Shown here in pieces: positions 11,495-49,580 of a stretch of DNA of 49,580 nucleotides. The stretch lies in the IMG/VR virus record IMGVR_UViG_3300033144_005510; one strand, written 5' to 3'. Made by a program: the position numbers and the translations under genes. Below the pieces are notes generated by a model, which ran no database searches, had not been told where the DNA came from, and saw only the letters and a program-made list of their open reading frames with translations. The stretch is from a virus. Lineage: Duplodnaviria; Heunggongvirae; Uroviricota; Caudoviricetes. Numbering within the stretch: position 1 is the first letter of the stretch; the number at the start of each line of letters is the position of its first letter.

Positions 11495-12121
11495 ATGGGG
11501 TTTAAAGTATTAGTAGACAGCAGAGAAAAAAATAGCTGGGAATTGAAGAGTTCTCGCGTTTCTGCTACAGAAAAAATAAAATTGGACACTGGTGATTATA
11601 CTATAGATGGTTATGAAGATATATTATGTATTGAAAGAAAAGAAAGCGTAACCGAACTAGCTGGAAATATTACTCAGGCTAGATTTAAAAAAGAATTGGA
11701 ACGAATTAAAGAAATTCCATATGCATACCTTATATTAGAAGCTAATATAAAAGAAGTTTTAGAATATCCTTATTACGAACATGGCAAACATGATATATGC
11801 TGTTACACTTGTGAGAATGTTGACTGTAGCATAAAAGGTAAAAAAAGATACGCTTTTTTCGATGAGATGTCAGCAAACTTTCAGTGTAAGGAGTGCGAAG
11901 AACCAGAAAATATATGTATGGTCTTTCGACGTAGGTCAAACCTTCATCCAAGCATATTACAAAAAATTAAACTTAATGGTAGCTTTATCCTTCGTTGTTT
12001 AAATCGTATGCAAGTAAAATATGATTTTAATATAATATATGCTGACAACAGAGAAATTGCTCAACGAGTTGCTGTTAATTTAATGCAAGATGTACTAGAA
12101 TGGCACAAACCCAAAAATTAA
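11495..12121 (+). CDS. ERCC4/XPF-family nuclease with a Cys-rich insertion
   Basis: VDSREK, LDTGDY, CIERKES...L, ELERI signatures. Confidence 0.8.
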   Translation: MGFKVLVDSREKNSWELKSSRVSATEKIKLDTGDYTIDGYEDILCIERKESVTELAGNITQARFKKELERIKEIPYAYLILEANIKEVLEYPYYEHGKHDICCYTCENVDCSIKGKKRYAFFDEMSANFQCKECEEPENICMVFRRRSNLHPSILQKIKLNGSFILRCLNRMQVKYDFNIIYADNREIAQRVAVNLMQDVLEWHKPKN

Positions 12122-14220
12122 TAAGACCTAATTCTATTGTAGATGATGCTTGGCTTAAGCTTGGTAATTTACATGGAAAAGAAATAGAAAATCAGTTAAT
12201 CGGTCGTGATCGAGACGATGTTGAAAATCCAGGTTTATTAGAACTTAGGATTATGCGTAATCCAGAGTATCTTGGTTTTGCAGCAAAAGTTTTGTTAGAC
12301 ATTGATGTACTTCCTGAACAGGCCGCTATCTTACAAGAACTTTGGATCAGGCCTTTTCCTATGTATATAGCAAGCCGTGGTTTCGGTAAGTCTTTCTTAT
12401 TAGCTTTATATGCTACTCTTAGATGCGCTTTGATCCCAGGTACAAAGGTTGTGGGCGTTGGTTCGGCCTTCCGTCAGTCCAGGGTTATTTATGAATACAT
12501 GGATACCATTTGGAGAAATGCGCCTATCTTACGGTCTGTTTGTACCCAAGCCAGTGGTCCTCGTCAAGCGGTCGATAGATGTTCTGTGGTCATTAATGAC
12601 TCAACTGCTGTATTTGTTCCGCTAGGCGACGGTTCCAAGATCAGAGGCTTACGTGCTACATGTATTATTGCGGACGAATTTGCATCTATTCCTCCAGATA
12701 TTTATGAAACTGTTGTTCGCGGTTTTGCTGCGGTTGAACAAAAGCCTTTGGACGGTGTTAAGGGTTACGCAAGAAGAGAGGCTTTACAGGCTCAGGGCCA
12801 ATGGACAGAGAATCAGGAACAGGTTTTCCGTACTAAGGGCGGCAACCAGTGTATTATTGCTGGTACTGCTGATTATGATTTTATGCCCTATGCGGATTAC
12901 TGGAAGAAGTATATGACCTATATTAGGTCGAAGGGAGATCCTAAAAAGCTTATCAAACTTCCTTCTGGCGAGGTTAAAACTCTAGGAGAATTTTTCCCAG
13001 ACGGTGTTGAGGAGGCTTTCGATTATAAAGATTATGCTGTAATTAGAATTCCTTACGAGTTAATTCCAAAAGGATTTATGGATGATAAAGTTGTTGCAGC
13101 AGCTAAAGCAGGAAGTCATAAAGCTATTTACCAAAAAGAATATGGAGCGGTATTTCCTTCAGATTCTGACGGGTTTTTTAAAAGAAGTTTGATCGAGTCC
13201 TGCGTCACCAAAGATAGTAATCCAGTAGTTCTTCCTAGTGGTAGCGTTTGGTTTGATCCTGTGGTGGCTGGAACGCCTGGAAGACAGTACGTATACGGTA
13301 TTGACCCTGCTGCCGAACAAGATAATTTCTCTATTGTTGTCTTGGAACTCTGGCAGGATCATACTAGGATTGTGTATTCTTGGTCAACAAATGTCACCGA
13401 TTTTCAACGTAGGAAAAAGGCTGGCATGGCATCTGATCATGATTACTATGGTTTTTGCGCTAGAAAAATTAGAAATTTAATGAAGGTATTTCCTACCGAA
13501 AATATAGCGTTGGATGCTCAAGGTGGTGGTAGGGCTATTCTTGAGGCTTTTCACGACCCGAGTAAGCTAGAGCATGGGGAACATTTCTTGTGGCCTACTA
13601 ATAAAATCCTTAATCCAGATAAAGAGCTTCCTACGGATGTTGAGTCTGGTCTTCATATTATTCACATGTGCCAATTCGCTAATTTTGATTTTACTTCTAT
13701 GGCCAACCATGGTACTCGTAAAGATTTTGAAGATAAAGTCTTGCTATTTCCCAGGTTTGATCCCGTTAGTTTAGAAATGGCCGCTCATCAGGACCGTACA
13801 ACAGCTGAAAACCTTGGGGTTGACAAGTTGTATGACACTTTAGAAGATTGTGTTATGGAGATAGAAGAGTTAAAAGATGAGCTTTGCACTATAGTTATGA
13901 CTAGGACTGGAACTGGTGTGGGAGCCCGTGACAGATGGGATACTCCCGAAACTACTACAACGGAAGGTAAAAAGAAGAGAATGAGAAAAGACCGTTATTC
14001 TTCTTTGGTAATGGCTAATTATATAGCTAGATCTATTCAGCGCGCTCCAGCTTCTGTGGAGTACAGTGTAATCGGCGGTTTTTCACACCAACTTGCTGCC
14101 AGAAAAGATTCTGAAAAGTCTAATGATCTTTATCAGGGTCCAGAGTGGTTTACAAAAGGTATGAATAACGATAAAAATGGCGTAATAGGTCACGTTATTC
14201 GTAAAAACGGTGTAGAATAG
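12100..14220 (+). CDS. terL: terminase large subunit
   Basis: Walker A ASRGFGKS, coupling region DGSKIRGLRA, Walker B IIADEFA, nuclease YGIDPA...D and KDRYS near the C-terminus; precedes portal. Confidence 0.9.
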   Translation: MAQTQKLIRPNSIVDDAWLKLGNLHGKEIENQLIGRDRDDVENPGLLELRIMRNPEYLGFAAKVLLDIDVLPEQAAILQELWIRPFPMYIASRGFGKSFLLALYATLRCALIPGTKVVGVGSAFRQSRVIYEYMDTIWRNAPILRSVCTQASGPRQAVDRCSVVINDSTAVFVPLGDGSKIRGLRATCIIADEFASIPPDIYETVVRGFAAVEQKPLDGVKGYARREALQAQGQWTENQEQVFRTKGGNQCIIAGTADYDFMPYADYWKKYMTYIRSKGDPKKLIKLPSGEVKTLGEFFPDGVEEAFDYKDYAVIRIPYELIPKGFMDDKVVAAAKAGSHKAIYQKEYGAVFPSDSDGFFKRSLIESCVTKDSNPVVLPSGSVWFDPVVAGTPGRQYVYGIDPAAEQDNFSIVVLELWQDHTRIVYSWSTNVTDFQRRKKAGMASDHDYYGFCARKIRNLMKVFPTENIALDAQGGGRAILEAFHDPSKLEHGEHFLWPTNKILNPDKELPTDVESGLHIIHMCQFANFDFTSMANHGTRKDFEDKVLLFPRFDPVSLEMAAHQDRTTAENLGVDKLYDTLEDCVMEIEELKDELCTIVMTRTGTGVGARDRWDTPETTTTEGKKKRMRKDRYSSLVMANYIARSIQRAPASVEYSVIGGFSHQLAARKDSEKSNDLYQGPEWFTKGMNNDKNGVIGHVIRKNGVE
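14209..14218 (+). promoter_or_regulatory. late promoter variant GGTGTAGAAT
   Basis: One mismatch to consensus, 57 nt upstream of the portal start. Confidence 0.45.
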
Positions 14221-30553: not shown

Positions 30554-33500
30554 ATGGCTAATACAGTAAAAAATAATCAGGGCGGTGACTCTGGTAATTC
30601 TAATAATGGTAGAATTATTATTAAGACTGGTAGAATAAATACTCAGTCTTTAGATTCCATTGGATATAGTACTTTTCCAATAGAGGATTTTGACAACAAC
30701 GGATTGGGTGAAGGTCCAAATCTAGATATTCGTTTTGATGAAATTCGTTATTGGACTGGTGATTTAGCGGCTGATGGTTCTGGTAATCTACCCCCAATAT
30801 CCAGTAATAATTTCTATACATTAAATCAGGGCGATTCTTTAGTCGTTGCTAGTGGCGACGGTGTTCTCAGTAATGATACCGATCCTAACGGCGATCCTCT
30901 GACCGCATCCGTTACCGTTTATCCAACTTATGCTACAGCGGGTTATCGTGATGCTAGTCCTAGTGAACTGTTTGTATTTACTGCTCCTTCTAATTTAAGT
31001 GTCACTAATGTTGATCTTACAGTTGATGGTTTTGCTTCTGGTCAGGCGTTAACTATCGCTGGAACAACTTTGAATGACGGTGTTTATACCATTAATACTG
31101 TTACTGCTGGTGTTATTACTGTAGATGAAACCTTTACTAATGAAGGCCCGTTGCTTGCTGGTTCGGCATCTGGCACAGGATTTATATTTAATTCTGATGG
31201 TTCTTTCACGTATTTCCATGATGATTCTGCTGTTAATTCTGATTCATTTACTTATGCAGCAACCGACCCATCAGGTCTATCTGATACTGCTACAGCCAGC
31301 TTTACAATTGATCTAAAACCAACAGCTAATAATAATTCTTATGATCCTCCCACTTACGTAATTCAACAGGGAGAAGCCAATTATCTTGTTAACGCTGCTA
31401 ATGGCGTGCTTGTTAATGATAGTGATCCAGAAGGCGACGTTTTCCCAGATTTGACTGCTGCTGTAGTTGCTACTACTAGTAATGGTACGTTAATATTAAA
31501 CGCAGATGGTAGTTTCGATTATACTCATAATGATACTGTTACAAGTGGGGATACATTTACTTATAATGTAACTGATAGTGCTGGAAATGTTAGTAATACA
31601 GCTAGTGTTAATCTTTACATTAATCCAAGACCAACCGCTAATGATATCTCCGCTCCAGTAGTTTGTCAGCAGAGTGGTGTTATTAATGTTATTGCTGCCA
31701 GCGGCGCTTTATCAAACGACACAGACCCAGAAGGTCAAGCGTTGACCGCTTCTTTGGTCAGTGGTCCTAGCAACGCATCGGCGTTTACTTTAAATGCTGA
31801 TGGTTCTTATGATTATACTCACGACGGAACTGCTACCAGCGGTGATTCATTTACTTATAATGCTGTTGATATTTATGGCGGTGTATCCTCTGCTTCTGGT
31901 ACTGTAAGTATTACGATTAATCTTACTCCTGATGCTAATAATATTACTGCTCCTGTGGTTGTTCAGCAAAGTGGTACGATTAATATTCCTGCTGTTAGTG
32001 GCGTCTTGTCAAATGACACTGATCCAGAAGGCGGCGGTTTAACTGCTTCTTTAGTTAGTGGTCCAGATAATTCTTCATCTTTCACGTTGAATACGGATGG
32101 TTCGTATAACTATACACACGACGGAACTGCTACAAGTGGAGATGCTTTTGTTTATACCGCTACTGATAATAATGGGGCTAGTGATAACGCAACCTGTAGT
32201 ATTACTATTAATCTTACTCCTAATGCTAATAACATTACGGCTCCAGAGCTTGTCCAACAGAGTGGTACGATCAATATTGGTGCTGTTAGTGGTGTATTAT
32301 CAAACGATACTGATCCAGAAAATGGAACGTTGACTTCGACTATTCTTTCAAGTCCAAGTAATGCTTCGTCATTTACCTTAAACTCTGATGGTTCCTATGA
32401 TTATACTCATGATGGCACTGCGACCAGTGGAGATTCTTTCACATATACTTTAAGTGATGGGGCTGGAGGAACTGATACAGCAAGATGTGATATTACTATT
32501 AATTTGTGGCCTAATGCCAATAATGATACTTCGCCAATTACCTGCCCAAATAGCGGCACTATTAATATACCAGCTGTTAGCGGTGTATTGGCAAATGATA
32601 CTGATCCAGAAGGCCAAACTTTAACAGCTACTGTGCTTGCTAGTCCTAGTAACGCCTCAGCGTTTACTTTAAATTCAGACGGTTCATATGATTATACTCA
32701 TGATGGAAGTGCTACCAGTGGCGACTTCTTTACTTATACTGCAAGTGATGGACAGGGCGGAAGTGATACGGCAAGATGTGATATTACTATAGAAGTTGCT
32801 GGTACTCCTATTGCTAATGACGATGCAGCGTCTGTGGACAATGATACTATAACTAGTGGCGTTGTGCTTATCGACGTACTCGCTAACGATACTGATCCTA
32901 ATTCATTGCCGCTCACTATTAATGCTTTTACGCAGCCTTCTAGCGGAATTGTTACTCAGGTTGGTGAAGAGTTACAATATACGGCTAATGCTGGATTCCA
33001 TGGGTCTGATACATTTTACTATGACTGCACAAACGGCTCACTGGTTTCAAATTCAGGACAAGTTGATGTTACTGTAAATCTTGTTTCAAGAACAGTACTG
33101 ATTGGTAGCACTGGCGATTATGCTAACTGGACAGCTTTCTGTCAATCAAACAGTGGTGAGTACGCATTCTCCGATCCTTCGGAAGCTGGGGCTTTGCCTT
33201 TAACAGCGATTTTCATAGAGGGTGAAGTTCATACGGCTGCTAGATATACTCATGATTACTTCCAGGGAACCTGGGATGAAATTGCTACAGAACTTACGGT
33301 TACTAGCCAAGGGTTTACTGGCAAGCCTTATGGTACTCCAGGCGGTAATGGCACTATTTTGGAGCATAATTATTCTGACAATGGTTTTGGCCATGGTAAT
33401 AATGCAAATCTTTTTGGAAAAATAACTTGGACAGAAATAGAAATAGATGCTCCGAATTCTAATGGTGCGAATCGCGGCTTGTTTACATTCAGATATTGTC

Positions 33501-36500
33501 CGAATTTAGATTTTACTGTAGATCGTTGTTTATTACACGGTTATACCAATAATAATAGCTTAGGTGGTTTATTCCATTGTAGAGATGACCATGGTGAAAT
33601 TAAGATTACTAACAATCTTATTTACGGTCTCCAAGGAACAGGCTCAAGTGTTGGTATGTTTTTAAGCGTTACTCCAGCGGAAGAAGCAGATAACTCTATT
33701 AGAGTATATAATAACACGGTTTTGGACTGCGAGGTAAATAATCTCACAAGTTCTTTGATTAAGGTTTTAAATACTGATAAAGTTGACCTCAAGAATAATG
33801 TTCTTACTTGTTCGGGAACTCGCCCAGCAACCTTGGCTAGAAATTCTGTGGAAGGTGATGCAAATAGAGAGTTTACCTTTAATGATGTAGACCCAGATAC
33901 TATTACTGCTGGAGGTGCTAGTCCTGGTAGCTTTATAACCGATGGATTTGAGTCTGGAATGAACGTTATCGTTAACGGAACAACAAGTAATAACGGTACT
34001 TATAAAATTACCGCTGTAGCAGCAACGACTCTTACTTTAGATGCTGCTGAAACTTTGACATCGGAAGGTCCAGTTGGTAGCGGGTGTATTTTATCGGCAG
34101 GAACTTTTGTAAATTCAAATAGTGAAGGTAATGTCCTTGACGACAACAGTGGTAGTGACAATGACATCTTTAATATTGCTATTTACGAGTCAGGCGAAAC
34201 TAGTGATGTTTACGTCAATCCTTCTTTAACTAATTTGGATCTGACTCATAAGTCTACAAGCCCTGCAATTAATGTTGCCACGACCCTAACTCTTGCTAGT
34301 GGAATAGATATTAATTATATCACTCAGCCTGCTCTTGACTTTGTTGATCGTGTTAGTGGCGCAGCCAATTGGAATGCTGGCGCTAGTACGGATGTGGCTT
34401 CTGGTGCGCCTTTGTCGATGCCAGCTTGGGAAGATACCTGGGTAAGATACGATGAAATTCTAACCGAACCAAGCGGCACTCTTCTAATGTCTCGTAAAGA
34501 GTTTAGAGATGGCTTTGGTGCTGTTATACATGATAATACTGATACTATCAATATGACAGCTTCTAGAGTTGATGACAACGGTGTTTTAAGAATTATCGGT
34601 GGTTCTGCTTCTGGAAATTATGATATAGACGCTCAAGATGAGATGATGACATTCTTGAGATCTTTGAAACATCAAACTCATATAAAAGCTGTTGACTCGT
34701 CTGCAACTGAATATGTATCGCCAAGTGGAAATATTTTTGGTATTATTTCTGATCAGATTAATACCAATAGTCCTTCGCCTAAACATAGCAGTACTTTTGC
34801 GGCTGTAAGCGAAATGATTTGTTATCCCACTACAGACTCTTTGTTTATAGAACAAGGTATTGAAGGAGATAGCAAGCTTGTTGCAAGAGGTAATCTTCAA
34901 TATCGTCGTAGATTAGATCCTCCGTCTGGCGAATGGAGAACAACCTTGGGTATGCATAGGGTTCACCCAACCTATGGAATAGGCGACACAGACGGTACTA
35001 AATACTGGAATACACTAAATGGAATGATAAGCAACTTGGCTCCAGATACAGAATATGAGGTAAAAATTGATGTTTCTGTTCAGTCAAGTCCTATCTCTGG
35101 TGAGGCCACCGCTGATGGCGTTGCTATTACGTTTGTTGATGATGTAACCGATTACTTTATGTGTACGGCAGACCTTGAAAATCCAGCCGATCAAAATAAC
35201 ACTGACACTATCAATGTATCCAGATTATCAAGTATTGATCAAGAAGCATTTAGACCATTTGTTAGTGGCATGATTGTAACTGTTAGTAACTCTAGTAGTA
35301 ATGACGGTAATTATGAAATAGATAGTGTTACTTATGAAACTCCTACTGCTATCGTTGCTTCTGCTGGAAGAACGCTTACATTTACTGCTGCTGGTAATAC
35401 TATTACTGGTAGTACTGGTGATTTTGTAGCGGATGGCGTTAAACCAGGAATGTCGCTAACTGTTACTGGTACTTCAAATAACAACGAAACTTACGCAGTA
35501 TCTAGTGTTACTTCTAGTGTTATTGATTGTGCGGGTTCGCCTGTAATGACCGATGAAGGTCCATTAAGCTCGTCTGCAACTTTGACACCATTTGGTACTT
35601 CCATGACGGTATCTTCTGGCACTTTGACTAGCGAAGGTCCAAGTTTTAGTGCTCAGATACAGGGTACGCTTACTCCCTCTGGAACTGCTAGTTATGAGAT
35701 GACCGCAAAGACAAAAGCACTTCCTCGCGAAGGTATTGGTGTTATAATTGCCGAAGGAATTGACACTTCAAGAGAATTTACATTTACTGACTCTTTAGGC
35801 GCTCCAGATACTATCACATGTCCAAGTGGAAGCTTTATTACAGACGGTTTTGCTTCAGGTAATTTATTAACTGTTCTTGGTACTGCAAATAATAATGGTC
35901 AATATACTATCAATGCTGTTACTGCTGGAACTCTTACTTTAGATTCTGGAGATAGTTTAGTTAATGAAGGGCCAATTGGCAGTGGTGTTGTTTTAGGTGC
36001 CAAGAATGTTTGGAATGTTTATAATCGAGCTGAACTTGATACTGTACTTGCAGACAGTGTGAACGTTGCTTCTGGTGACATTATTATCATGCATGAGGAT
36101 GATAGAGTTGCCACACAAGTACAAGCTTCTGCCAGTAGAATTTTGAATTTTAAGCAGGCCACTAAAGTTCAGGCCAGCGCTACTAACACTCTTACCTTCA
36201 CTGCTGGAACAAATGAAGTAACAAGAAGTGACGGCGGCTCGTTTATTGATGACGGGTATGCATCTGGTATGCAGCTTCGTGTTTGTGGTCAAAACGGATT
36301 TTTTGCTACTCCTAATAGAAGAATTACTCTTGTTGAAGGTGGCGGTTCTAACGATACAATCCGTATTTCTGCTGGAGACGTGCTGGCAGACGGATGGGAA
36401 GTTGGAATGGGAATAACTCTTGATGGAATGGGTAATGACAAGGTTGTAACGATAGATTCTGTAGCAAGCTCAGGGGCAAATCAAGCCAGCGGTATTACTG

Positions 36501-39500
36501 GTTCTCAAGAATTTTCTTTTGCAACGAATGAAACCATTACGTCAAATGATAATTTTAACTTCCTTGACAACGGGTTTATCAAGGGGATGCAAATTATTGT
36601 TGATGGTAGTGCGAGTAATGATGGAAGATATGTTTTAAGCAATGTTTCAAGTGGTGTGCTTACTGTAGATAGATATCAATCAAGTATCGCAGGAGATGAT
36701 TTAACAACTGAAAATAATGTTGGCAATGGACTTACTATTAATGGTAGTTGCCAAATCATTACCTTAGATGCTGGGGATGATATTAGTGATCAAGGTCCAG
36801 AAAACGGTGGTGAAAACAGAAATGGTTCCATGTGTGCAAAAATTGATAATATTGGTTGGTACGATATTACTGCTGTTACTGCCAGTGGAATAACTGTTGG
36901 TTCAGCGTTTACAAACGAAACCAATTCTAAAATTTGCACTCTTGAAACTGGTGGTTTAGTAGAAGCGAGCGGTGCTTCCCCAGGAGATTTTGTGGCTGAC
37001 GGATTTATTGAGGGTATGTCTCTTGTAGTCAATGGAACGGCTTCTAATGATGGAAGATATACTATTGCTAATGTAAGTACAACAAAACTAGGTATGATCG
37101 GTAGCTTTACTGATCAAATGACCGAAGAATTAAATGTTACTTCTACTGCTACATTAGATGGAAATGGAGCTGCTTATTATACTGATCCAACTGGTTATAA
37201 CCCAGGAGAAAATGGATTTGGTCAAAATAATTCACCAAGCTATGGTGAATCTATTACTATTTCTCAAGTTGGTGGAACTGCCAGTAATCCACTTATTATT
37301 AGAGGTAATGGTGATGTTAGAACTCCTCGCTGGACTATTGCGAATGACTGGATTTGGTTTGATAATATAAAGTTTGAGCCTATAATGAGAAATCGGATTA
37401 ATGATACGTCATCGTCTTTTGTAAATACCGTCGTTATTAATGCTAAAGGAGGCGGCTTGTCACATGATGGAATTATGATGACTCGCTGTGAATTAAGTTG
37501 GGACAAGTGCCAAACTTATGATCTAAACGGTGAAGGTATTGAAAACGTAAAAGACGGATATTGGCATAATATAGCCGCTCAAGTTGTTGCATCAGACAAT
37601 GATATTGTTTCGCATATGTATGTATCAGACTTTACGGTTGGGGCTACTGTGCAGAATGGTATAGATAATACGCCTGATACTACTAACAATTTCAATAACA
37701 AACCTTCTAATACTGGATGGATGATAAGAGAAGGTTTTGAAGTTCGGTCGACTGCGGGAACTATGATTTATTCCACTTTCTTTAATACCATGGATGCTTG
37801 GAGTGCTGGTGGAACAGGTGCTGCAAACGAGGGAGAAGCATGTGGCAATGATTTTTGGAACATAAAAACCGTTCAACATTATGACGACATTATTGAAAGC
37901 GATTATTGTGGTTGGGGCAACCATATAAGGGAGCACAGGCACTCAAAATACAGAAAGCAAGAAAGAAACCCCATTGGTCATCCTGGTGCTTCTAGTGTTA
38001 GAAGTACTCTTGACGGTATTTCGGTATGGTCTCTTGGTCAAGGAGGAACCTGGACTTTTGGACATTATCAGTCTTACATACAGGGAACTGGCATTAGTAT
38101 TAAGACTGATAGTACCACCTTTTTGAAACTTAGACCGCCGTTGGATGCTAACAGCTTGAGTTCAGCTCATTCTCATATGTGGTGGAACAGAGGACAAGGA
38201 AGCTCGTCCTCGGTGTATCAGGTTCCTGGTCAATCAAATGGTTTGTGTTGGGCGGGTAATTACTGGGCAGCCAGAAGACATGTAGCAGGTAGTGATACAT
38301 TTGGCGATGACTTGTTCCAAGAAACTGGAGGTTCTTCTCTTGGTGGCGTCATGAAGGGAGAAATGTGGTGGGACAAAAATTCGTATTATGAATTATGGGG
38401 CGATGTTCAATACAGTGGTCCTGGTTCTCGTCAAGGTTATCCTGGCACATCAATAGCTGCTATTAGGGATACTTGGAGTCAAGCAAGAGATGTAAAAGTT
38501 GATGAAAACTCTGTAGAAGACCTTAACATAAGATCTGAAAGAAGTGATGAAACAACTTCTGATGATACTTTAAGTTTCAATAATGCAAACCCAGATACTA
38601 TAACAAGAAGTACTGGAAGCTTTGTAACAGACGGTTATTCGGCTGGCATGACTGTCACCGTTCTTGGTAGTGCTAGTAATGACGGGACTTATACTGTAGC
38701 TGCTGGAGGCGTTGCTGCTACAACTTTGACTTTAGAAGGTACAGATTCTCTAACTGCTGAAAGTTCCGTTGGTAATGCAACGGCATCTGCTAGTGGAAGT
38801 AGAACCTTTAAGTTCGTTTCTCTTTTCGGTGATGGTGGTGTTGATTATGTTGAATGTAGTAGCGGTAGCTTTATTACCGATGGATTTAAAGCTGGTCAAT
38901 ATCTAACGGTTACTGGTGTTGGTTCAAAAGACAATAATGGTGAATACAGAATAGCAAATGTGACCGCTAGTAGAATTGAGCTTAATACTCATGACCGATT
39001 TATCAATGAAGGTCCATTAGATGGTTCTACCGCAAATACTTGTACTTTGACTGGAAAAACCATTGTTAAGGGAGAAAAACAGGTAACATCAGTTTTCTTA
39101 AATCCTCCACAGATGCCTGTTGACGTAAAGAAAACCCCGCATGAACAATTAGGAAATTCTCCTGAGAATGGTGTTCGTAGTTACTGGGAAACAGAATTTA
39201 ACGACGGTGCTAAAGGAACCATGGATTTGGTTAAAGCCAATCCTACTGGTACTATGTATGGTGCTGGTGTTCAAGATTCTGATTTTGATGGCGCGGAAAT
39301 GTTTTTGAATCCTTATCTTGATAATGCAGTTGATTCTGGTATTATTAATAAGCTTAGTCTGCCTACCAAATCTGCTAGAGATATTGGTCCAGGGGATACG
39401 GCTATGGGATCTTATCCAGTTGGCACAAGATCGTATACTGATTATCTCGCCTATCAGCTTCCCGACGGTTGGGAAGTAAAAGGAAGCGTTCCTGCTGGAT

Positions 39501-39616
39501 TAGGTATTGTTTCTGGCTCAGGAGAGCAAAGAATTATTGTTGGTAGAACAGACAACACTGTGGCCGTATTGGTTGAATTTGAGCCAGGGAATAATCCTTA
39601 TAATGGCATCTTGTAG
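30554..39616 (+). CDS. giant 3020-aa virion adhesin/depolymerase: anchor, 7 cadherin-like repeats, beta-helix, Fn3, second beta-helix, ~11 inserted beta modules
   Basis: Single uninterrupted ORF; VLxNDTDPEG...LNxDGSxxYTH repeats; VYNNT/LKNNV beta-helix rungs; NLAPDTEYEVKI Fn3; HYDDIIESD beta-helix motif; no signal peptide. Confidence 0.8.
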   Translation: MANTVKNNQGGDSGNSNNGRIIIKTGRINTQSLDSIGYSTFPIEDFDNNGLGEGPNLDIRFDEIRYWTGDLAADGSGNLPPISSNNFYTLNQGDSLVVASGDGVLSNDTDPNGDPLTASVTVYPTYATAGYRDASPSELFVFTAPSNLSVTNVDLTVDGFASGQALTIAGTTLNDGVYTINTVTAGVITVDETFTNEGPLLAGSASGTGFIFNSDGSFTYFHDDSAVNSDSFTYAATDPSGLSDTATASFTIDLKPTANNNSYDPPTYVIQQGEANYLVNAANGVLVNDSDPEGDVFPDLTAAVVATTSNGTLILNADGSFDYTHNDTVTSGDTFTYNVTDSAGNVSNTASVNLYINPRPTANDISAPVVCQQSGVINVIAASGALSNDTDPEGQALTASLVSGPSNASAFTLNADGSYDYTHDGTATSGDSFTYNAVDIYGGVSSASGTVSITINLTPDANNITAPVVVQQSGTINIPAVSGVLSNDTDPEGGGLTASLVSGPDNSSSFTLNTDGSYNYTHDGTATSGDAFVYTATDNNGASDNATCSITINLTPNANNITAPELVQQSGTINIGAVSGVLSNDTDPENGTLTSTILSSPSNASSFTLNSDGSYDYTHDGTATSGDSFTYTLSDGAGGTDTARCDITINLWPNANNDTSPITCPNSGTINIPAVSGVLANDTDPEGQTLTATVLASPSNASAFTLNSDGSYDYTHDGSATSGDFFTYTASDGQGGSDTARCDITIEVAGTPIANDDAASVDNDTITSGVVLIDVLANDTDPNSLPLTINAFTQPSSGIVTQVGEELQYTANAGFHGSDTFYYDCTNGSLVSNSGQVDVTVNLVSRTVLIGSTGDYANWTAFCQSNSGEYAFSDPSEAGALPLTAIFIEGEVHTAARYTHDYFQGTWDEIATELTVTSQGFTGKPYGTPGGNGTILEHNYSDNGFGHGNNANLFGKITWTEIEIDAPNSNGANRGLFTFRYCPNLDFTVDRCLLHGYTNNNSLGGLFHCRDDHGEIKITNNLIYGLQGTGSSVGMFLSVTPAEEADNSIRVYNNTVLDCEVNNLTSSLIKVLNTDKVDLKNNVLTCSGTRPATLARNSVEGDANREFTFNDVDPDTITAGGASPGSFITDGFESGMNVIVNGTTSNNGTYKITAVAATTLTLDAAETLTSEGPVGSGCILSAGTFVNSNSEGNVLDDNSGSDNDIFNIAIYESGETSDVYVNPSLTNLDLTHKSTSPAINVATTLTLASGIDINYITQPALDFVDRVSGAANWNAGASTDVASGAPLSMPAWEDTWVRYDEILTEPSGTLLMSRKEFRDGFGAVIHDNTDTINMTASRVDDNGVLRIIGGSASGNYDIDAQDEMMTFLRSLKHQTHIKAVDSSATEYVSPSGNIFGIISDQINTNSPSPKHSSTFAAVSEMICYPTTDSLFIEQGIEGDSKLVARGNLQYRRRLDPPSGEWRTTLGMHRVHPTYGIGDTDGTKYWNTLNGMISNLAPDTEYEVKIDVSVQSSPISGEATADGVAITFVDDVTDYFMCTADLENPADQNNTDTINVSRLSSIDQEAFRPFVSGMIVTVSNSSSNDGNYEIDSVTYETPTAIVASAGRTLTFTAAGNTITGSTGDFVADGVKPGMSLTVTGTSNNNETYAVSSVTSSVIDCAGSPVMTDEGPLSSSATLTPFGTSMTVSSGTLTSEGPSFSAQIQGTLTPSGTASYEMTAKTKALPREGIGVIIAEGIDTSREFTFTDSLGAPDTITCPSGSFITDGFASGNLLTVLGTANNNGQYTINAVTAGTLTLDSGDSLVNEGPIGSGVVLGAKNVWNVYNRAELDTVLADSVNVASGDIIIMHEDDRVATQVQASASRILNFKQATKVQASATNTLTFTAGTNEVTRSDGGSFIDDGYASGMQLRVCGQNGFFATPNRRITLVEGGGSNDTIRISAGDVLADGWEVGMGITLDGMGNDKVVTIDSVASSGANQASGITGSQEFSFATNETITSNDNFNFLDNGFIKGMQIIVDGSASNDGRYVLSNVSSGVLTVDRYQSSIAGDDLTTENNVGNGLTINGSCQIITLDAGDDISDQGPENGGENRNGSMCAKIDNIGWYDITAVTASGITVGSAFTNETNSKICTLETGGLVEASGASPGDFVADGFIEGMSLVVNGTASNDGRYTIANVSTTKLGMIGSFTDQMTEELNVTSTATLDGNGAAYYTDPTGYNPGENGFGQNNSPSYGESITISQVGGTASNPLIIRGNGDVRTPRWTIANDWIWFDNIKFEPIMRNRINDTSSSFVNTVVINAKGGGLSHDGIMMTRCELSWDKCQTYDLNGEGIENVKDGYWHNIAAQVVASDNDIVSHMYVSDFTVGATVQNGIDNTPDTTNNFNNKPSNTGWMIREGFEVRSTAGTMIYSTFFNTMDAWSAGGTGAANEGEACGNDFWNIKTVQHYDDIIESDYCGWGNHIREHRHSKYRKQERNPIGHPGASSVRSTLDGISVWSLGQGGTWTFGHYQSYIQGTGISIKTDSTTFLKLRPPLDANSLSSAHSHMWWNRGQGSSSSVYQVPGQSNGLCWAGNYWAARRHVAGSDTFGDDLFQETGGSSLGGVMKGEMWWDKNSYYELWGDVQYSGPGSRQGYPGTSIAAIRDTWSQARDVKVDENSVEDLNIRSERSDETTSDDTLSFNNANPDTITRSTGSFVTDGYSAGMTVTVLGSASNDGTYTVAAGGVAATTLTLEGTDSLTAESSVGNATASASGSRTFKFVSLFGDGGVDYVECSSGSFITDGFKAGQYLTVTGVGSKDNNGEYRIANVTASRIELNTHDRFINEGPLDGSTANTCTLTGKTIVKGEKQVTSVFLNPPQMPVDVKKTPHEQLGNSPENGVRSYWETEFNDGAKGTMDLVKANPTGTMYGAGVQDSDFDGAEMFLNPYLDNAVDSGIINKLSLPTKSARDIGPGDTAMGSYPVGTRSYTDYLAYQLPDGWEVKGSVPAGLGIVSGSGEQRIIVGRTDNTVAVLVEFEPGNNPYNGIL
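30791..33079 (+). repeat. seven tandem ~97-aa cadherin-like (Big_9/tandem-95-type) Ig repeats
   Basis: Each has P.AN..., NDTDP.G and (in six) LNxDGS.xY.H, closing with D.FTY...D; repeats 3-6 are the most similar. Confidence 0.85.
30935..39060 (+). repeat. dispersed and nested ~75-90 aa beta module, about 11 copies
   Basis: Consensus R.(L/F)TF...TI....G.F..DG(F/Y)..G(M/Q)...V.G...N(N/D)G.Y.I..V.....L..EGP; cores near 31025, 33941, 35258, 35432, 35843, 36251, 36389, 36566, 36998, 38629, 38879. Confidence 0.85.
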
Positions 39617-39679
39617 GTGTTCATCCTGGCAATTGATGATACTTATAATAACTAACTTTATTTAATAAGGCTTAAACAC

Positions 39680-39904
39680 ATGGCTAATACTGTTAAAAAT
39701 AATGCTGGTGGTGATACTGGTCAAGTCCAAAACGGTATCACAACTATCAAGACTGGTCGAACAACTGTTCAACAGTTGAATTCTCCTGGTTTTGATGATA
39801 CTTTTGATATCGCAAGCTTTGATTTAGACGCGACTCCTCAAGATGGTACTAATCTTGACGAACGTTTTGATGATCCCCGTTACTATACTGGCGATGCTCC
39901 ATAG
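39680..39904 (+). CDS. 74-aa standalone paralog of the giant protein N-terminus (putative anchor protein)
   Basis: 40 of 74 residues identical to 30554 N-terminus by manual alignment (MANTVKNN.GGD.G...NG...IKTGR...NLD.RFD..RY.TGD). Confidence 0.8.
   Translation: MANTVKNNAGGDTGQVQNGITTIKTGRTTVQQLNSPGFDDTFDIASFDLDATPQDGTNLDERFDDPRYYTGDAP
39798..39818 (+). repeat. 21-nt exact direct repeat, copy 1
   Basis: ATACTTTTGATATCGCAAGCT, identical to 43965-43985. Confidence 0.85.
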
Positions 39905-39913
39905 GCGTAAAAT

Positions 39914-40444
39914 ATGTCTACAAATCCTTTTAATGGCATGATTACCGATAGTTTTAAGCAGTTGCATGTAAACATGATAACCGAGGTTATTCGAGGTTGT
40001 TCTGTTGATTGTAAGCTGTATTTCGGCGTTACAAAATATAGTGATTGTGCTAATTGCGTTTATGATCCAATTGGAAATAAATCCGCAAATAGATATCAAA
40101 CAGGAGGTCCAGCCCCATTTGCCATGGGTCAATGTCCTATGTGCGGTGGTGCTGGAAAAATAGCAGACGAGCAAACCGAAGACATTAAACTTTGTCCTCT
40201 TTATGATTACAAAAGTTGGATTCCAGGCATTAGTTCAAATGTTCAATCTCCAGAAGGCTTTGTTCAAACCGTTAGTGCTTTTAGTACATTTTCTACTTTA
40301 CGTAGAGCAAAAGAAATTATTATAGACACTTCTCTAGATAAGATAGTTAGGCCTCGTTTTGAAATACATAGTGAGCCAGAACCTTGCGGAATGGGGGCTA
40401 GTGATTTTTGTTTAACAATGTGGAAGAGAATAGAAAATGGCTAA
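39914..40444 (+). CDS. head closure / neck protein with two CxxC pairs
   Basis: DCANC and CPMCGG motifs; synteny with neck genes (inference). Confidence 0.55.
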   Translation: MSTNPFNGMITDSFKQLHVNMITEVIRGCSVDCKLYFGVTKYSDCANCVYDPIGNKSANRYQTGGPAPFAMGQCPMCGGAGKIADEQTEDIKLCPLYDYKSWIPGISSNVQSPEGFVQTVSAFSTFSTLRRAKEIIIDTSLDKIVRPRFEIHSEPEPCGMGASDFCLTMWKRIENG

Positions 40445-41103: not shown

Positions 41104-42072
41104 ATGCCTTCAACAAATTATTCATTTAAGCAGGTTAATCACATTGGTGATACATACCTTATGAATAAACTAGAAGTTAATTTAAAAACATGGTTCGACT
41201 GGGCTTTGTTACGTGCTGGTGGCTGGACAAATGTAAGTATTCCATTGCCAGGAGCATACGGTGGTGATTTTAGCACTTTGAGACAAGTTGATGATCCATC
41301 TTACACTGCTGGAACAGTATGGGAGTCGGTTAGAAAAGATTGGGTATGGGAAACTGGGGTAGATTATGTTGGTACGGATACGGTAACTTATAATCCAACT
41401 AGTCCAGCCGTAGTTCAAGTGGACAGTGTTGTAACTGCACCAGATCATATTAATTATCCTTTAGGAAGAGTTATTTTTGCAACTCCCATATCCTCTAGTT
41501 CGACTGTACAGGCTCAATATAGTTATAGATATGCTCAAGTTTATCGTGCCGATGATGTTCCGTGGTGGAATGAATTACAATATCGTTCATTTAGACCAGA
41601 CGATGTTCAGTTTACAGAACTAGAAGATGGTAGCTGGTCTGTTGGTTCTCAACATAGATTTCAAATGCCTTGCGTAATTATTGAGGCGGTTCCTAGATCT
41701 ATGTCTCGACCTTATCAGTTAGGAGATGGTGCTGCTTGGGTGGAGCAAGATGTGCTAGTTCATGTTTTAGCTGAAAATAGAAATGATAGAAATAAACTTG
41801 TCGATATTTTTCGCGGCCAATTTGACGCAAGTATCGACTTATTTGACAATGACGCAATAGCTGCTGCTGATGCTTATCCTCTGGACTATAGAGGAGAAAT
41901 TGTGGATAGTTCCCAAACGTATCCAGCTTTAGTTAATCCAGATACAGGTTATGTTTGGAACCAGTCTTCTGTTAGATTTAGTCGGACAGAAGTGGCTGAA
42001 GTAGAATCTTTGAATTCTAGACTTTTTGAAGGTGTGGTTAGAATGACTTGTGAGATTATTTTAAATGATTAG
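41104..42072 (+). CDS. tail terminator-like protein with an inserted beta domain
   Basis: QMPCVIIEAV...VEQDVLVHVLAENRNDRNKLVDIF pattern just before the tail tube gene. Confidence 0.55.
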   Translation: MPSTNYSFKQVNHIGDTYLMNKLEVNLKTWFDWALLRAGGWTNVSIPLPGAYGGDFSTLRQVDDPSYTAGTVWESVRKDWVWETGVDYVGTDTVTYNPTSPAVVQVDSVVTAPDHINYPLGRVIFATPISSSSTVQAQYSYRYAQVYRADDVPWWNELQYRSFRPDDVQFTELEDGSWSVGSQHRFQMPCVIIEAVPRSMSRPYQLGDGAAWVEQDVLVHVLAENRNDRNKLVDIFRGQFDASIDLFDNDAIAAADAYPLDYRGEIVDSSQTYPALVNPDTGYVWNQSSVRFSRTEVAEVESLNSRLFEGVVRMTCEIILND

Positions 42073-43633: not shown

Positions 43634-44521
43634 ATGTCTGGAAATAACCCTGTTATCTCTACGCAACAGAGCGTTGATTTTATCTATCGAAAAGTTGGAG
43701 AACTTTTTATAGAGCTTCAAACGGTAAAACAAAATCTTACCAATACCGTAAAAAATCATAACGACCAAATTGATGAAATAAGATTAAATTTTCAAGAGCT
43801 AGTGGATGGCAAAGAAAAGCTTTCATTAAAGTATGATAATCTAAAAGAAGAATACGATGAATTACTAGCTTCAAACGAGGTTCTTCAAAACGATTTTAAA
43901 GAATCTCAAGAAAAATTAAAAGATTTAACTAATCTTGTTTCTCCAGGTTCTTTTGATTTAGATAATACTTTTGATATCGCAAGCTCTGACGGCACTCTGC
44001 CTGTTTTAGAAGAAAAAATTGATTCTGATGATTCGGAGTCTTCTGAATGTGAAACATGTGATGTATCAAACGAAACATGTGGTGAGCCTTGTTTAGAACA
44101 CGATCTTAATGAGTATGGAGTTCCCCACTCGGATATGGTGGAATTAACAAAAAAGTTAGGAAATAGTACTGATGTAGAATTTATTATGAACACCCTTAAT
44201 GAATTCTGCAAAGAAAAAGGGTATTTAATACATACACAAGAAACAGAGAATTCTGTAGAGTATAAAGTAGTTAGTAAACAATGGGCGCTTGATAATATTC
44301 AAACTAGAGAAGAGCCATCGTTTGACGATGAAATGGAAGAAGATATTATTGAAGAAGAACCTTCTAAAGACATTCCACAATTTCTAGGGACGCACCTTGA
44401 AATAATGGAAGAAGGAACTAATGTAGACATAACTCCTACTGCTGAACAAGATGATTCCGAGGTAATCTTTGGTAAAAGTCTTTTAGATGACTCTCTTGAG
44501 GATCTAATGAGTGGAACGTGA
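43634..44521 (+). CDS. coiled-coil acidic hypothetical protein (295 aa)
   Basis: N-terminal heptads, CETC...CGEPC cluster, acidic tail; AGGA-rich SD. Confidence 0.7.
   Translation: MSGNNPVISTQQSVDFIYRKVGELFIELQTVKQNLTNTVKNHNDQIDEIRLNFQELVDGKEKLSLKYDNLKEEYDELLASNEVLQNDFKESQEKLKDLTNLVSPGSFDLDNTFDIASSDGTLPVLEEKIDSDDSESSECETCDVSNETCGEPCLEHDLNEYGVPHSDMVELTKKLGNSTDVEFIMNTLNEFCKEKGYLIHTQETENSVEYKVVSKQWALDNIQTREEPSFDDEMEEDIIEEEPSKDIPQFLGTHLEIMEEGTNVDITPTAEQDDSEVIFGKSLLDDSLEDLMSGT
43965..43985 (+). repeat. 21-nt exact direct repeat, copy 2
   Basis: Identical to 39798-39818; encodes TFDIAS in both genes. Confidence 0.85.
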
Positions 44522-47001: not shown

Positions 47002-49580
47002 ATGGCAACAGCATTTAATCTAACGGCCCGATTAAATATCCAAGGTCCGTTTGGCGTTAAGCCAGTAGTAGACAAGCTTCGCAGTCAATTAAATAACGTC
47101 AAGGGTGATGTGAAAATCAACTTTGATGCTAGTGTGACTAAAAGAATACAAGAAGCTAACAAAGCACTTGCAGAGACGGAGAGAAGATTAAAAAATATTC
47201 AGGCTTCCTCCGCAGCGGCTAGAAATAATCTTTCAGGTCTTTCTCAATCATTTTCTAATGTTGCGAATTCTACTCAAAAATCAGTAAGGTCTCAATCACA
47301 GGCCAATGCCGTTATTGCCTCTACTGCTAGAGGTGCTGCCGAAGCAGCTTCTGAGATGGAAGATTTTGGTAGAGTCTCTGGTTTAGCTATTAGGCGATTT
47401 GCTGGATTTACAGTGGCCACAAGCGTCGTTTTTGGTTTTGTTAATGCTGTTCGTGACGCCACTAAAGAAGCTATTGCGTTTGAAAGAGAATTAATCAAAG
47501 TTCAGCAGGTCACTGGAACATCTCAGTTTTTATTAAAAGGACTGACAGACGAAATAACAAGATTGTCAACTACGTTCGGTGCTTCTTCTAGTTCATTGGT
47601 TTTAGCTGCACGTACATTATCACAGGCTGGTTTCACGGCTGCTGAAACTCAAAAGGCTTTAGAAGCATTAGCCAAAACAGATCTTGCTCCTACATTTGAT
47701 AATATCACCCAAACTACTGAAGGATCTATTGCTGCATTACGTCAGTTTAATATTGAGACTTCTGAACTTGAGGGCGTTCTAAGTTCAATCAATGCTGTTG
47801 CTGGTAAGTTTGCTGTTGAGTCGGGCGATATCATTGCAGCGATTAGACGTACTGGTGGCGTTTTTGCTGCTGCTGCTGGAGATGATCAGGAAGCCACCGA
47901 ATCTCTTCGTCAGTTTATCGCTTTATTCACATCTGTTCGTGCAACAACTCGTGAATCTGCTGAAACGATTGCTACTGGTTTACGTACAATTTTCACTCGT
48001 ATCCAAAGAAGAAGTACAATTGATTCTTTGAAAGAGTTGGGTATTGAGCTTGAAACTCTAGACGGTAAATTTGTTGGTCCTTTTGAAGCTATTAAGAGAT
48101 TAAGCGACGGCCTAAGTTCTCTTGATCCACAAGATCTCCGATTTGCAGAAATCGTAGAAGAGCTTGGTGGTTTTAGACAAATTGGTAAAGTTATTCCGCT
48201 TATTCAGCAATTTGAAACTGCCCAACAGGCTTTGAAGGTTGCAACAGAAGGCCAGGGCTCTTTGGCCAAAGATGCGATAACTGCCCAGCAATCACTTGCA
48301 GTTCAGTTTCAAAAGACACAAGAATCTTTTTTGGCATTAGTTCGTGATATCAGTCAAACTGATACTTTTCGCAGTATAGCCGAAGGAGTTTTGCAAGTAG
48401 CAAATACTTTTATTGATTTGGCTGGCGCAGTCAAGCCCGTTCTTCCTTTGCTTGCTGCATTTACCGCTTTCAAAGCTGCTCAAAGTGCTGTTCAATTTAC
48501 AAGAGGTTTTCGTTCTGGTGTTGCTGGTGCGGGAGGCGCTTCTGGTTTAGGATCAAGAATTGGTAGTCTTGGTGCTGATCAATCCGACATTGCTTCTACA
48601 AATAGTAATACTGCTGCTGTTACTCGAAATACAGCGGCACAGCAGGCTCAAACTGCTACGGAAAAATCTACTGCTGCCGTGCAGCAAACTCTTATAGGTT
48701 TAGGTAAATCCACAGAAGCTGTTTTAAGGGCTAACACAAATGCTTTAGGTTTAAATTCTGGTAATTTAAATTCAAATACTACGGCCTTAAGAGCGTCTAT
48801 AAATATAATGCAGTCTAGTATTTCGGCAACAACTGCTAATACTTCAGCAATAAATAGGCTTTCTCAGGTAATAGCTGGAAGTCGCTTTAGTTCTGGCCAA
48901 ACGGCTGCTAGAGCATCAGCTGCATCGCGTCCTTCTACACGCCGTCGAAATGCAAGCGGCGGTTCGATTAAATTTCAGACTGGCGGACAAGTTGGCGTCA
49001 ATGTTGGAGTATCTTCTTTTGGTGGTGGAGGATCGGCTCCTAGAAAAAGATTTGGAGGTGGGGGTAGCACTGGAAGAAGAAAGCGATTTGCCAGCGGTGG
49101 TAAGGTAAGTCGTTTTGGTGGCGGTGGCAATGTTCAACGATTTAATAGAGGAAGCATTCAAAAAATTAGACAAGAAGGAAGAGAAAGAGCTGGTATTGGA
49201 AATGTATTTGCAAGTTCTGATACAGTAAGACTTTCTAGAAGCTCTGGTAAACAGGCTGGCTTTATTAAAAAGACTGATGCTTTATTGGATGATGAGGGTA
49301 CTTTTGGTGCAATTTTCTTGAGACCTGGGGATATCAGTGAAAATACAATTGGTCGCGTTGAAGGTTCTGAATTTGCAGGTATTGCTGGACCTTCCGCTGC
49401 AAGAGCGGCTTTTCCAAAAACAATAAATGCTAAAAGCGTTGGCAATGCGCAAGTTAGACAAGCTTTGCAACAATATGACAAACAGAAAAAAGGAATTGAA
49501 AACAGGTTAAAACAAGGCACGGACTTTAATTTATTAATTAGAGGATTAGATGCAGATGACAGTGTAAGAATAGAAGACAG
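47002..49580 (+). CDS. tail tape measure protein, 5' part (runs off the window)
   Basis: ATG 47002, MATAFNLTARLNIQGP...; translated segments at both ends are in the same frame with no stop seen; FERELIKVQQVTG, LSQAGF, INAVAGKFAVESGDI, VEELGGFRQIGKVIPL TMP-type motifs. Missing from the ORF track because it has no stop in the window. Confidence 0.9.
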   Translation, partial: MATAFNLTARLNIQGPFGVKPVVDKLRSQLNNVKGDVKINFDASVTKRIQEANKALAETERRLKNIQASSAAARNNLSGLSQSFSNVANSTQKSVRSQSQANAVIASTARGAAEAASEMEDFGRVSGLAIRRFAGFTVATSVVFGFVNAVRDATKEAIAFERELIKVQQVTGTSQFLLKGLTDEITRLSTTFGASSSSLVLAARTLSQAGFTAAETQKALEALAKTDLAPTFDNITQTTEGSIAALRQFNIETSELEGVLSSINAVAGKFAVESGDIIAAIRRTGGVFAAAAGDDQEATESLRQFIALFTSVRATTRESAETIATGLRTIFTRIQRRSTIDSLKELGIELETLDGKFVGPFEAIKRLSDGLSSLDPQDLRFAEIVEELGGFRQIGKVIPLIQQFETAQQALKVATEGQGSLAKDAITAQQSLAVQFQKTQESFLALVRDISQTDTFRSIAEGVLQVANTFIDLAGAVKPVLPLLAAFTAFKAAQSAVQFTRGFRSGVAGAGGASGLGSRIGSLGADQSDIASTNSNTAAVTRNTAAQQAQTATEKSTAAVQQTLIGLGKSTEAVLRANTNALGLNSGNLNSNTTALRASINIMQSSISATTANTSAINRLSQVIAGSRFSSGQTAARASAASRPSTRRRNASGGSIKFQTGGQVGVNVGVSSFGGGGSAPRKRFGGGGSTGRRKRFASGGKVSRFGGGGNVQRFNRGSIQKIRQEGRERAGIGNVFASSDTVRLSRSSGKQAGFIKKTDALLDDEGTFGAIFLRPGDISENTIGRVEGSEFAGIAGPSAARAAFPKTINAKSVGNAQVRQALQQYDKQKKGIENRLKQGTDFNLLIRGLDADDSVRIED

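Follow-up and report, generated by a model that had tools for sequence, protein, structure and literature searches.

We analyzed a 49,580-nucleotide (nt) contig of a tailed phage (IMG/VR record IMGVR_UViG_3300033144_005510, hereafter the window), in which a gene encoding a 74 amino acid (aa) protein lies just downstream of a gene encoding a giant 3020-aa protein that begins with a diverged copy of the same module. Our analysis suggests that the small protein, which we refer to as the anchor, is probably a reusable docking handle for virion appendages. More specifically, we consider it about an even bet (probability roughly 0.5) that the anchor is a core, disordered virion-docking peptide, most likely positioned at the head-tail junction, that has been reused to attach cargo. 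The basis for this reading is the homology of the two copies, the protein family to which they belong, synteny, recurrent fusions, the fold of the upstream adaptor, and the immunoglobulin-like (Ig-like) and lectin nature of two of the cargos.

A module shared by the giant and the small protein

A preliminary description of the window had pointed to a resemblance between the N-terminus of the giant protein and the product of the small gene located 63 nt downstream, and this was confirmed by BLASTP using giant residues 1-120 as the query (E-value = 4e-22). Giant residues 1-70 align with small-protein residues 1-72 with 2 gaps and 40 identities; the earlier count of identities was right, while its denominator of 74 has to be replaced by the 72 aligned columns. 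The same alignment bears out that the similarity stops where the small protein ends, at the common ...RY(W/Y)TGD (giant residue 70, small-protein residue 72). In addition, both copies match a profile built from proteins of other phages (Table 1), and thus the similarity goes well beyond chance. At the DNA level the copies are ~60% identical and carry numerous synonymous differences, which indicates an old duplication and not a recent conversion; despite this divergence both open reading frames (ORFs) are still open. The pair was found unaltered on 18 metagenome contigs, and the 9-kb giant ORF is uninterrupted in 11 assemblies at 99.8-100% identity. The two genes share the same reading frame, and the possibility that the small protein is a read-through product of the giant's stop codon was ruled out by two in-frame stops between them (TAG, then TAA).

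As a separate observation, a 21-nt stretch within the anchor gene (39794-39814) is repeated with one mismatch at 43961-43981, inside an unrelated gene encoding a 295-aa protein. Zero such repeats are expected in shuffled sequences, and both stretches encode ..(D/N)TFDIAS.. (BLASTP E-value = 0.004).

A family of short proteins

Pattern scans of IMG/VR revealed a family of proteins of ~60-90 aa that start with MA[D/N] and contain, in order, an invariant Gly at about position 19, a variable middle, and the motif RFDDPRYYxGD 2-4 residues before the C-terminus. Among 136 aligned members, G19, R62, F63, D64, Y68 and Y69 are each present in at least 90%. The 74-aa protein has all of the conserved residues and the G-D end, and the copy in the giant retains the G, R, F, D, first Y and GD, with E-I replacing D-P and W replacing the second Y. 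Both window proteins are family members, as the 74-aa protein and giant residues 1-72 match the ~65-position model significantly along its full length. When 1.84 billion representatives were searched exhaustively with the profile, 489 clusters were recovered at E <= 1e-3, of which 63 reached E <= 1e-10, and the representative of the giant's own cluster was also returned (P0059, E-value = 6e-11). Nearly all of the best 150 family clusters are 54-100 aa long, and the standalone form accounts for >95% of the members, which suggests that the small gene is the ancestral, near-universal form and that the giant borrowed a copy of it, instead of the small gene being a cut-down giant.

The opposite view, in which a partial duplication covering the 5' end of the giant gene left behind the 74-aa ORF as a remnant with no function, would account for two adjacent genes in the same orientation. 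The chance of this is close to nil, given that the standalone form is the common state of the 489-cluster family and occurs without a giant, that the motif is conserved, and that the DNA copies are ~60% identical yet both ORFs are intact; the family survey, the locus synteny and the DNA comparison each speak to this, and together they refuted it.

Searches of Pfam and PHROGs with the 136 family members gave single chance-level matches only, and the anchor profile had no match among PDB sequences. No cultured-phage match to the family was found in INPHARED, no paper containing the motif was found in a literature search, and no relative was found in one genome for each of 185,579 species, which gives no clue to the host. 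Feature matches for the peptide in the ESM Atlas were implausible, with scores below 0.9. For the 74-aa protein, the Atlas model has a predicted local distance difference test (pLDDT) score of 0.23, and the peptide is predicted to be intrinsically unstructured.

Recurrent fusions to unrelated cargo

The preliminary description had proposed, as a check, to search relatives for the module and to list what is fused to it. Our analysis showed that the module indeed recurs both on its own and as a handle for unrelated cargo, in three arrangements. First, cargo is attached at the C-terminus in the window giant, in two adjacent LamG proteins of locus L009 (PF13385, Laminin_G_3), in P0114 and in P0180, as well as in loci L004, L007, L044 and L058, where this cargo is ~200 aa long. 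Second, whole domains are inserted in the middle loop in abundant 189-aa forms and in P0190. Third, P0152 and P0124 are larger proteins that carry the module at their C-terminal end. All six loci (6/6) in which a C-terminal fusion was seen in its genomic context retain a standalone copy. When the motif is excluded, the module of the giant is nearest its own neighbor (49% identity), and the modules of the L009 LamG proteins are nearest each other and their own standalone copy (66% and 43%); since each fused copy is nearest its own neighbor, the fusions must have arisen independently. Standalone proteins stop 2-4 residues past the GD, precisely where the fusions continue. Pfam analysis of six other fused or inserted cargos gave a match for the LamG proteins only; the tip domain of P0114 may be C1q-like. 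The identifiable cargos correspond to surface-type domains (Big_9/cadherin and Laminin_G_3). Separately, at L044:8780-9600 a fused gene of the L004/L007 type is split into ORFs of 116 and 155 aa, which could reflect a frameshift, a genuine split or a mistake in the assembly.

The cargo of the giant looks like a long adhesin or fiber. A short linker of ~13 residues separates the anchor module from seven Big_9/cadherin-like repeats (aa ~85-860, nt ~30806-33133), identified by their Pfam scores (Big_9 1.6e-61, Cadherin_5 4.2e-47, Cadherin_4 4.1e-40). The Big_9 profile (PF17963) reaches 205.6 bits against a cut-off of 23.6 over 8 stretches, and PF17892 and PF17803 match too. The seven N[DT][ST]DP motifs of the repeats lie at residues 107-778, with the last five spaced 97-99 aa apart. 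The ~2150 aa that follow had no Pfam or PDB sequence match. A module of ~50 aa (..F[IV].DG[FY]..GM..V.G...NDG.Y.I..V) occurs at least 7 times across the giant, this region included (e.g., aa 150-193, ~1129-1171, ~1990-2043 and ~2689-2741) and matches phrog_1236, annotated as "head protein" (E-value = 3.6e-20).

The recurrence of the same short segment could also mean that it is a tag recognized by a chaperone, a protease or a modifying enzyme, with the standalone form acting as a regulator or competitor. The predicted disorder is consistent with such a tag, an enzyme could recognize a very short motif that is near-invariant among otherwise divergent phages, the standalone forms end right after the GD, and sugar-pathway enzymes or glycosyltransferases are encoded near some loci. 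We nevertheless regard a tag as very unlikely: no candidate partner enzyme co-occurs consistently, the anchor has a conserved place inside the neck gene string (see below), and the toleration of whole-domain insertions at three positions better suits a docking element.

Genomic position of the anchor

The gene upstream of the giant, whose stop codon lies 1 nt before the giant's ATG, encodes a predicted head-to-tail adaptor. An AF2 model built from 12 sequences was unusable (pLDDT 47), and the modeling was repeated with an alignment of 68 sequences (pLDDT 74.9). When this model was compared with PDB representatives by VIA-align, the top rows were almost all phage head-to-tail adaptors, from more than 30 solved phages (A4, GP4, Carin-1, VP1, KHP30, HK97 gp6, Mu, P22 gp4 and Sf6 gp7 among the top matches; Z 5-9.4), with 95-110 residues aligned at 3-4 A. 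We assign the label because this list of best matches is functionally uniform, although each Z is moderate; a Foldseek search of the PDB with the model returned nothing at E <= 0.001. The matches support assignment to the HK97 gp6 / SPP1 gp15 / T7 gp11 class, whose fold is a helical bundle with a beta-hairpin and a disordered C-terminal arm, at the level of fold class only. Homologues of the adaptor form at least 1587 metagenome clusters, several of them from Tara and all unnamed.

Comparative analysis of 80 loci anchored on the adaptor, in 63 of which the adaptor can be seen together with the next neck gene, showed that the adaptor is kept upstream of the anchor in related loci and that in 47/63 the anchor immediately precedes the putative head-closure gene. 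The window has the same arrangement, with the anchor downstream of the adaptor and its stop 9 nt before position 39914. The gap between the anchor stop and the next gene ranges from -41 to +18 nt in 38/45 distinct loci, and 13 loci have the minimal string of adaptor, anchor (60-70 aa) and next gene. The preliminary description had placed the pair between head-tail adaptor and head-closure genes; the adaptor side of this statement is supported by the predicted fold, while the head-closure label is positional only.

The neck slot has no anchor in 16 loci. All four relatives that are at least 94% complete and lack a neck copy (including the complete 186.8-kb genome G001) carry the anchor elsewhere; because such genomes retain a distant copy, the anchor behaves as a core gene, and it looks like a core gene of this phage group. 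In the 145-187-kb relatives G001, G006, G007 and G008 (the records of loci L025, L094, L102 and L104), the anchor lies ~75-80 kb from the neck genes. The distant anchor of G006 adjoins a papain-like 306-aa protein and, downstream, a fiber-like gene. Separately, G001 has two other genes in its neck slot, one of 81 aa and one, Ig-like, of 146 aa.

A hypervariable fiber cassette, which is a hot spot for such genes in this phage group, occupies the stretch between adaptor and anchor; it is empty in 13 loci and spans up to ~6 kb in relatives and ~9 kb here. In related loci (L035-L110) it contains fibers of 300-890 aa with a common N-terminal segment and proteins of 1278-1831 aa; Mtd_N-type and S74-type fibers are also found in this interval, and one full-length cassette fiber matches tail-fiber PHROGs. 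In three loci away from the neck (L010, L016 and L025), a different fiber, with a Pfam Mtd_N N-terminus, is encoded directly upstream of the anchor. A more compact and different phage (L120:6001-10919) encodes an anchor with an N-terminal extension of ~95 aa; this gene is found two genes downstream of the probable capsid gene (340 aa; judged from gene order only), and its stop overlaps the start of a 1479-aa protein with about four repeats of ~230 aa.

This neighborhood raises the possibility that the small protein is not itself the virion anchor and instead is a fiber connector or cap that binds neighboring fibers (e.g., their Mtd_N-type N-termini), with the fusions hard-wiring the connection. 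A fiber-like gene adjoins the anchor in most loci, also away from the neck, as illustrated by the Mtd_N fibers of L010, L016 and L025, the downstream fiber-like gene of G006, and the L120 repeat protein that begins at the anchor's stop codon. However, the adaptor, anchor and closure genes occur with no intervening fiber gene in 13 loci and the window locus has no Mtd_N-type fiber, which leaves a connector decidedly unlikely.

Proposed docking at the head-tail junction and the capsid alternative

The conserved ends and insertion-tolerant middle of the anchor, its predicted disorder, and its repeated recruitment for surface-type domains suggest a docking peptide that folds on a virion partner, and its tight linkage to neck genes leads us to favor the head-tail junction as the site. 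The anchor-plus-cargo idea of the preliminary description is thus supported by comparison, as a discrete conserved module with recurrent fusions, and its placement at neck or capsid is what we infer. Under the docking-peptide reading, the peptide would dock on the adaptor or the next neck protein, or between the two, with the N-terminal strand (MA[D/N]...NG..V) and the C-terminal RFDDPRYYxGD making contact and the variable middle and both termini exposed. As the docking site would be present on every virion, cargo proteins could be brought to the particle by a copy of the peptide fused to them; the giant would dock through its own copy and display seven Ig-like Big_9 repeats and about 2150 further residues. 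Blank and loaded copies would plausibly share, or compete for, the same sites; that the small form may fill most of them is a proposal of the preliminary description.

A stronger version of this reading is possible but doubtful. It holds that a near-universal disordered peptide of ~65 aa is a plug-and-display handle for fixed sites at the head-tail junction, tolerant of fusions at the N-terminus, the C-terminus and the middle loop; that competition between blank and loaded copies sets the number of giant adhesins per particle; and that RFDDPRYYxGD (11 residues) is a portable minimal virion-binding tag. A complex prediction with two copies of the adaptor, two of the downstream 176-aa protein and the anchor scored 0.00 in a run without controls; it gives no verdict and counts neither way.

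Several points weigh against docking at the neck. No solved structure or described family matches the peptide (PDB, Pfam and PHROGs), incorporation into virions and the binding site are deduced from genes, and the head-closure identity of the downstream protein is putative, as it rests on gene order. The best-known examples of Ig-like domain strings come from capsid decoration proteins (Hoc and pb10) and not from neck proteins. Finally, at least four complete genomes and several further contigs have the anchor at a long distance from the neck genes, surrounded by non-structural genes but usually with a fiber-like gene next to it, and these distant copies make gene position an unsafe guide to the binding site.

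The same anchor-plus-cargo logic could also apply to a site on the capsid shell (a hexamer center, a vertex or a quasi-3-fold position), in which case the small protein would serve as a decoration or cement peptide of minimal size, and the giant would form an occasional head fiber. A string of Ig-like domains on a small binding domain is the architecture of Hoc and pb10 (PMC10385173; PMC5292684), the repeated module of the giant matches the phrog_1236 "head protein", the anchor is far from the neck genes in the four complete genomes, and in L120 it follows closely after the gene taken as capsid. On the other hand, the anchor is tightly linked to the putative head-closure gene in 38/45 distinct loci, 13 loci consist minimally of adaptor, anchor and closure, and the anchor has no similarity to any known decoration family (Pfam and PHROGs). 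A capsid site seems unlikely on this evidence, and we favor the neck.

Comparison with known attachment systems

In podophage tail fibers and tailspikes such as T7 gp17 and P22 gp9, a shared and conserved N-terminal domain docks at the interface of adaptor and nozzle, and the distal receptor-binding parts joined to it are exchangeable. We know of no case in which domains of this type (100-150 aa, folded and trimeric) form a separate, cargo-less gene. The adaptor of the window is structurally closest to podophage-type adaptors, but the window phage differs from podophages in having a tape-measure gene, and hence a long tail.

The binding module of T5 pb10 alone suffices for capsid binding (PMC5292684), and in T4 Hoc the capsid-binding domain is conserved while the Ig string is variable (PMC10385173). 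The window system resembles both in combining a small binding module with exposed Ig-like domains. In contrast to pb10 and Hoc, which have folded alpha-helical binding domains, one gene per phage and one to three Ig domains, the window module has no sequence relationship to theirs and is predicted to be disordered, a standalone core gene is present beside the fused form, the module's gene is located in the neck string, and the cargo is about 2950 aa long. Beyond single chance-level hits, none of the 136 family members matched a Pfam or PHROG family, and the PDB sequence search gave no match; the likeness is one of architecture only.

In cyanophage A-1(L), a long and flexible appendage of bead-like appearance is hooked through the N-terminal domain of gp82 to gp5, the head-to-tail adaptor (PMC10966104). 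As for gp82 and T4 fibritin, the appendage genes of the window are located near neck genes. The gp82 N-terminal domain is a folded trimer of ~125 aa for which no anchor-only paralogue has been described. Attachment of the window module to the adaptor is deduced; no sequence relationship between the two modules was found. The distinctive feature of the window system is the retention of the standalone gene as a core component.

If the peptide docks on the virion, it would represent a new and very small attachment module and, if this is true, one proven by evolution to accept cargo of 100 to about 2950 residues at three positions, which would make it a ready-made phage-display scaffold in a phage group that lacks cultured members and in which hardly any structural genes are annotated. 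It would also provide a first functional handle on a string of genes (adaptor, fiber cassette, anchor and closure) that are all annotated as hypothetical, and it suggests how phages gain enormous adhesins without evolving a new binding site.

Phage setting and neighboring genes

The window corresponds to a highly divergent tailed phage. It encodes a large terminase (12100-14220; phrog_2, 1e-17), which is only ~23% identical to those of Bacillus phages, and a tape-measure protein starting at position 47002 (PF10145, 9.7e-23), from which a long tail is deduced. Almost no other window protein matched Pfam or PHROGs, and DNA and protein searches of 50,697 INPHARED phage records identified no relative. 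Neither the giant nor the profiles of the anchor, adaptor and closure proteins gave a meaningful match among PDB sequences. Features of the anchor region are listed in Table 1.

Table 1. Coordinates of the giant/anchor pair and of the adjoining neck genes in the window.
Feature	Coordinates	Strand	Basis or remarks
Head-to-tail adaptor (predicted fold class), 176 aa	30022..30552	+	AF2 model and structural alignment; stop 1 nt before the giant's ATG
Giant gene	30554-39616	+	3020-aa ORF
Fused anchor module (giant aa 1-72; MANTVKNN...RFDEIRYWTGD)	30554..30769	+	BLASTP E 4e-22 against the 74-aa protein; family hidden Markov model (HMM) E 3.4e-19
Giant cargo, about 2950 aa	30770..39616	+	Linker, seven Big_9/cadherin-like repeats, then ~2150 aa
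Spacer between giant and small gene, 63 nt	39617..39679	+	Contains the second in-frame stop (TAA)
Standalone anchor gene, 74 aa	39680-39904	+	Undescribed MA[D/N]...G...RFDDPRYYxGD family; family HMM E 5.9e-24
Putative head-closure (stopper) protein, 176 aa	39914..40444	+	Gene order only; starts 9 nt after the anchor stop
Neck1/tail-completion-like protein, 218 aa	40437..41093	+	Synteny; weak phrog_5 match of the L001 homologue

The genes 3' of the anchor (encoding proteins of 176, 218, 322, 411 and 344 aa, and so on) form a string that is kept in all relatives. The first of these (39914-40444) had no match in Pfam, PHROGs or PDB sequence searches, and its putative head-closure label comes from gene order. 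For the 218-aa protein, the homologue in L001 has a weak match to phrog_5, "tail completion or Neck1" (E-value = 0.01).

Two minor observations concern this string. While the L001 homologue of the putative head-closure protein is without it, some of the other homologues, including the window's close relative in L008, have a CxxC...CxxC insertion that is probably a zinc ribbon. In addition, many relatives of the 322-aa tail-side protein (window 41104-42072; e.g., L001:11189-12163) carry the sequence LRLVDDPRY(T/D)xGQVWE, which resembles RFDDPRYYxGD; kinship between this protein and the anchor motif was considered and set aside, as the resemblance is probably due to chance and the window's own 322-aa copy reads DDPSY.

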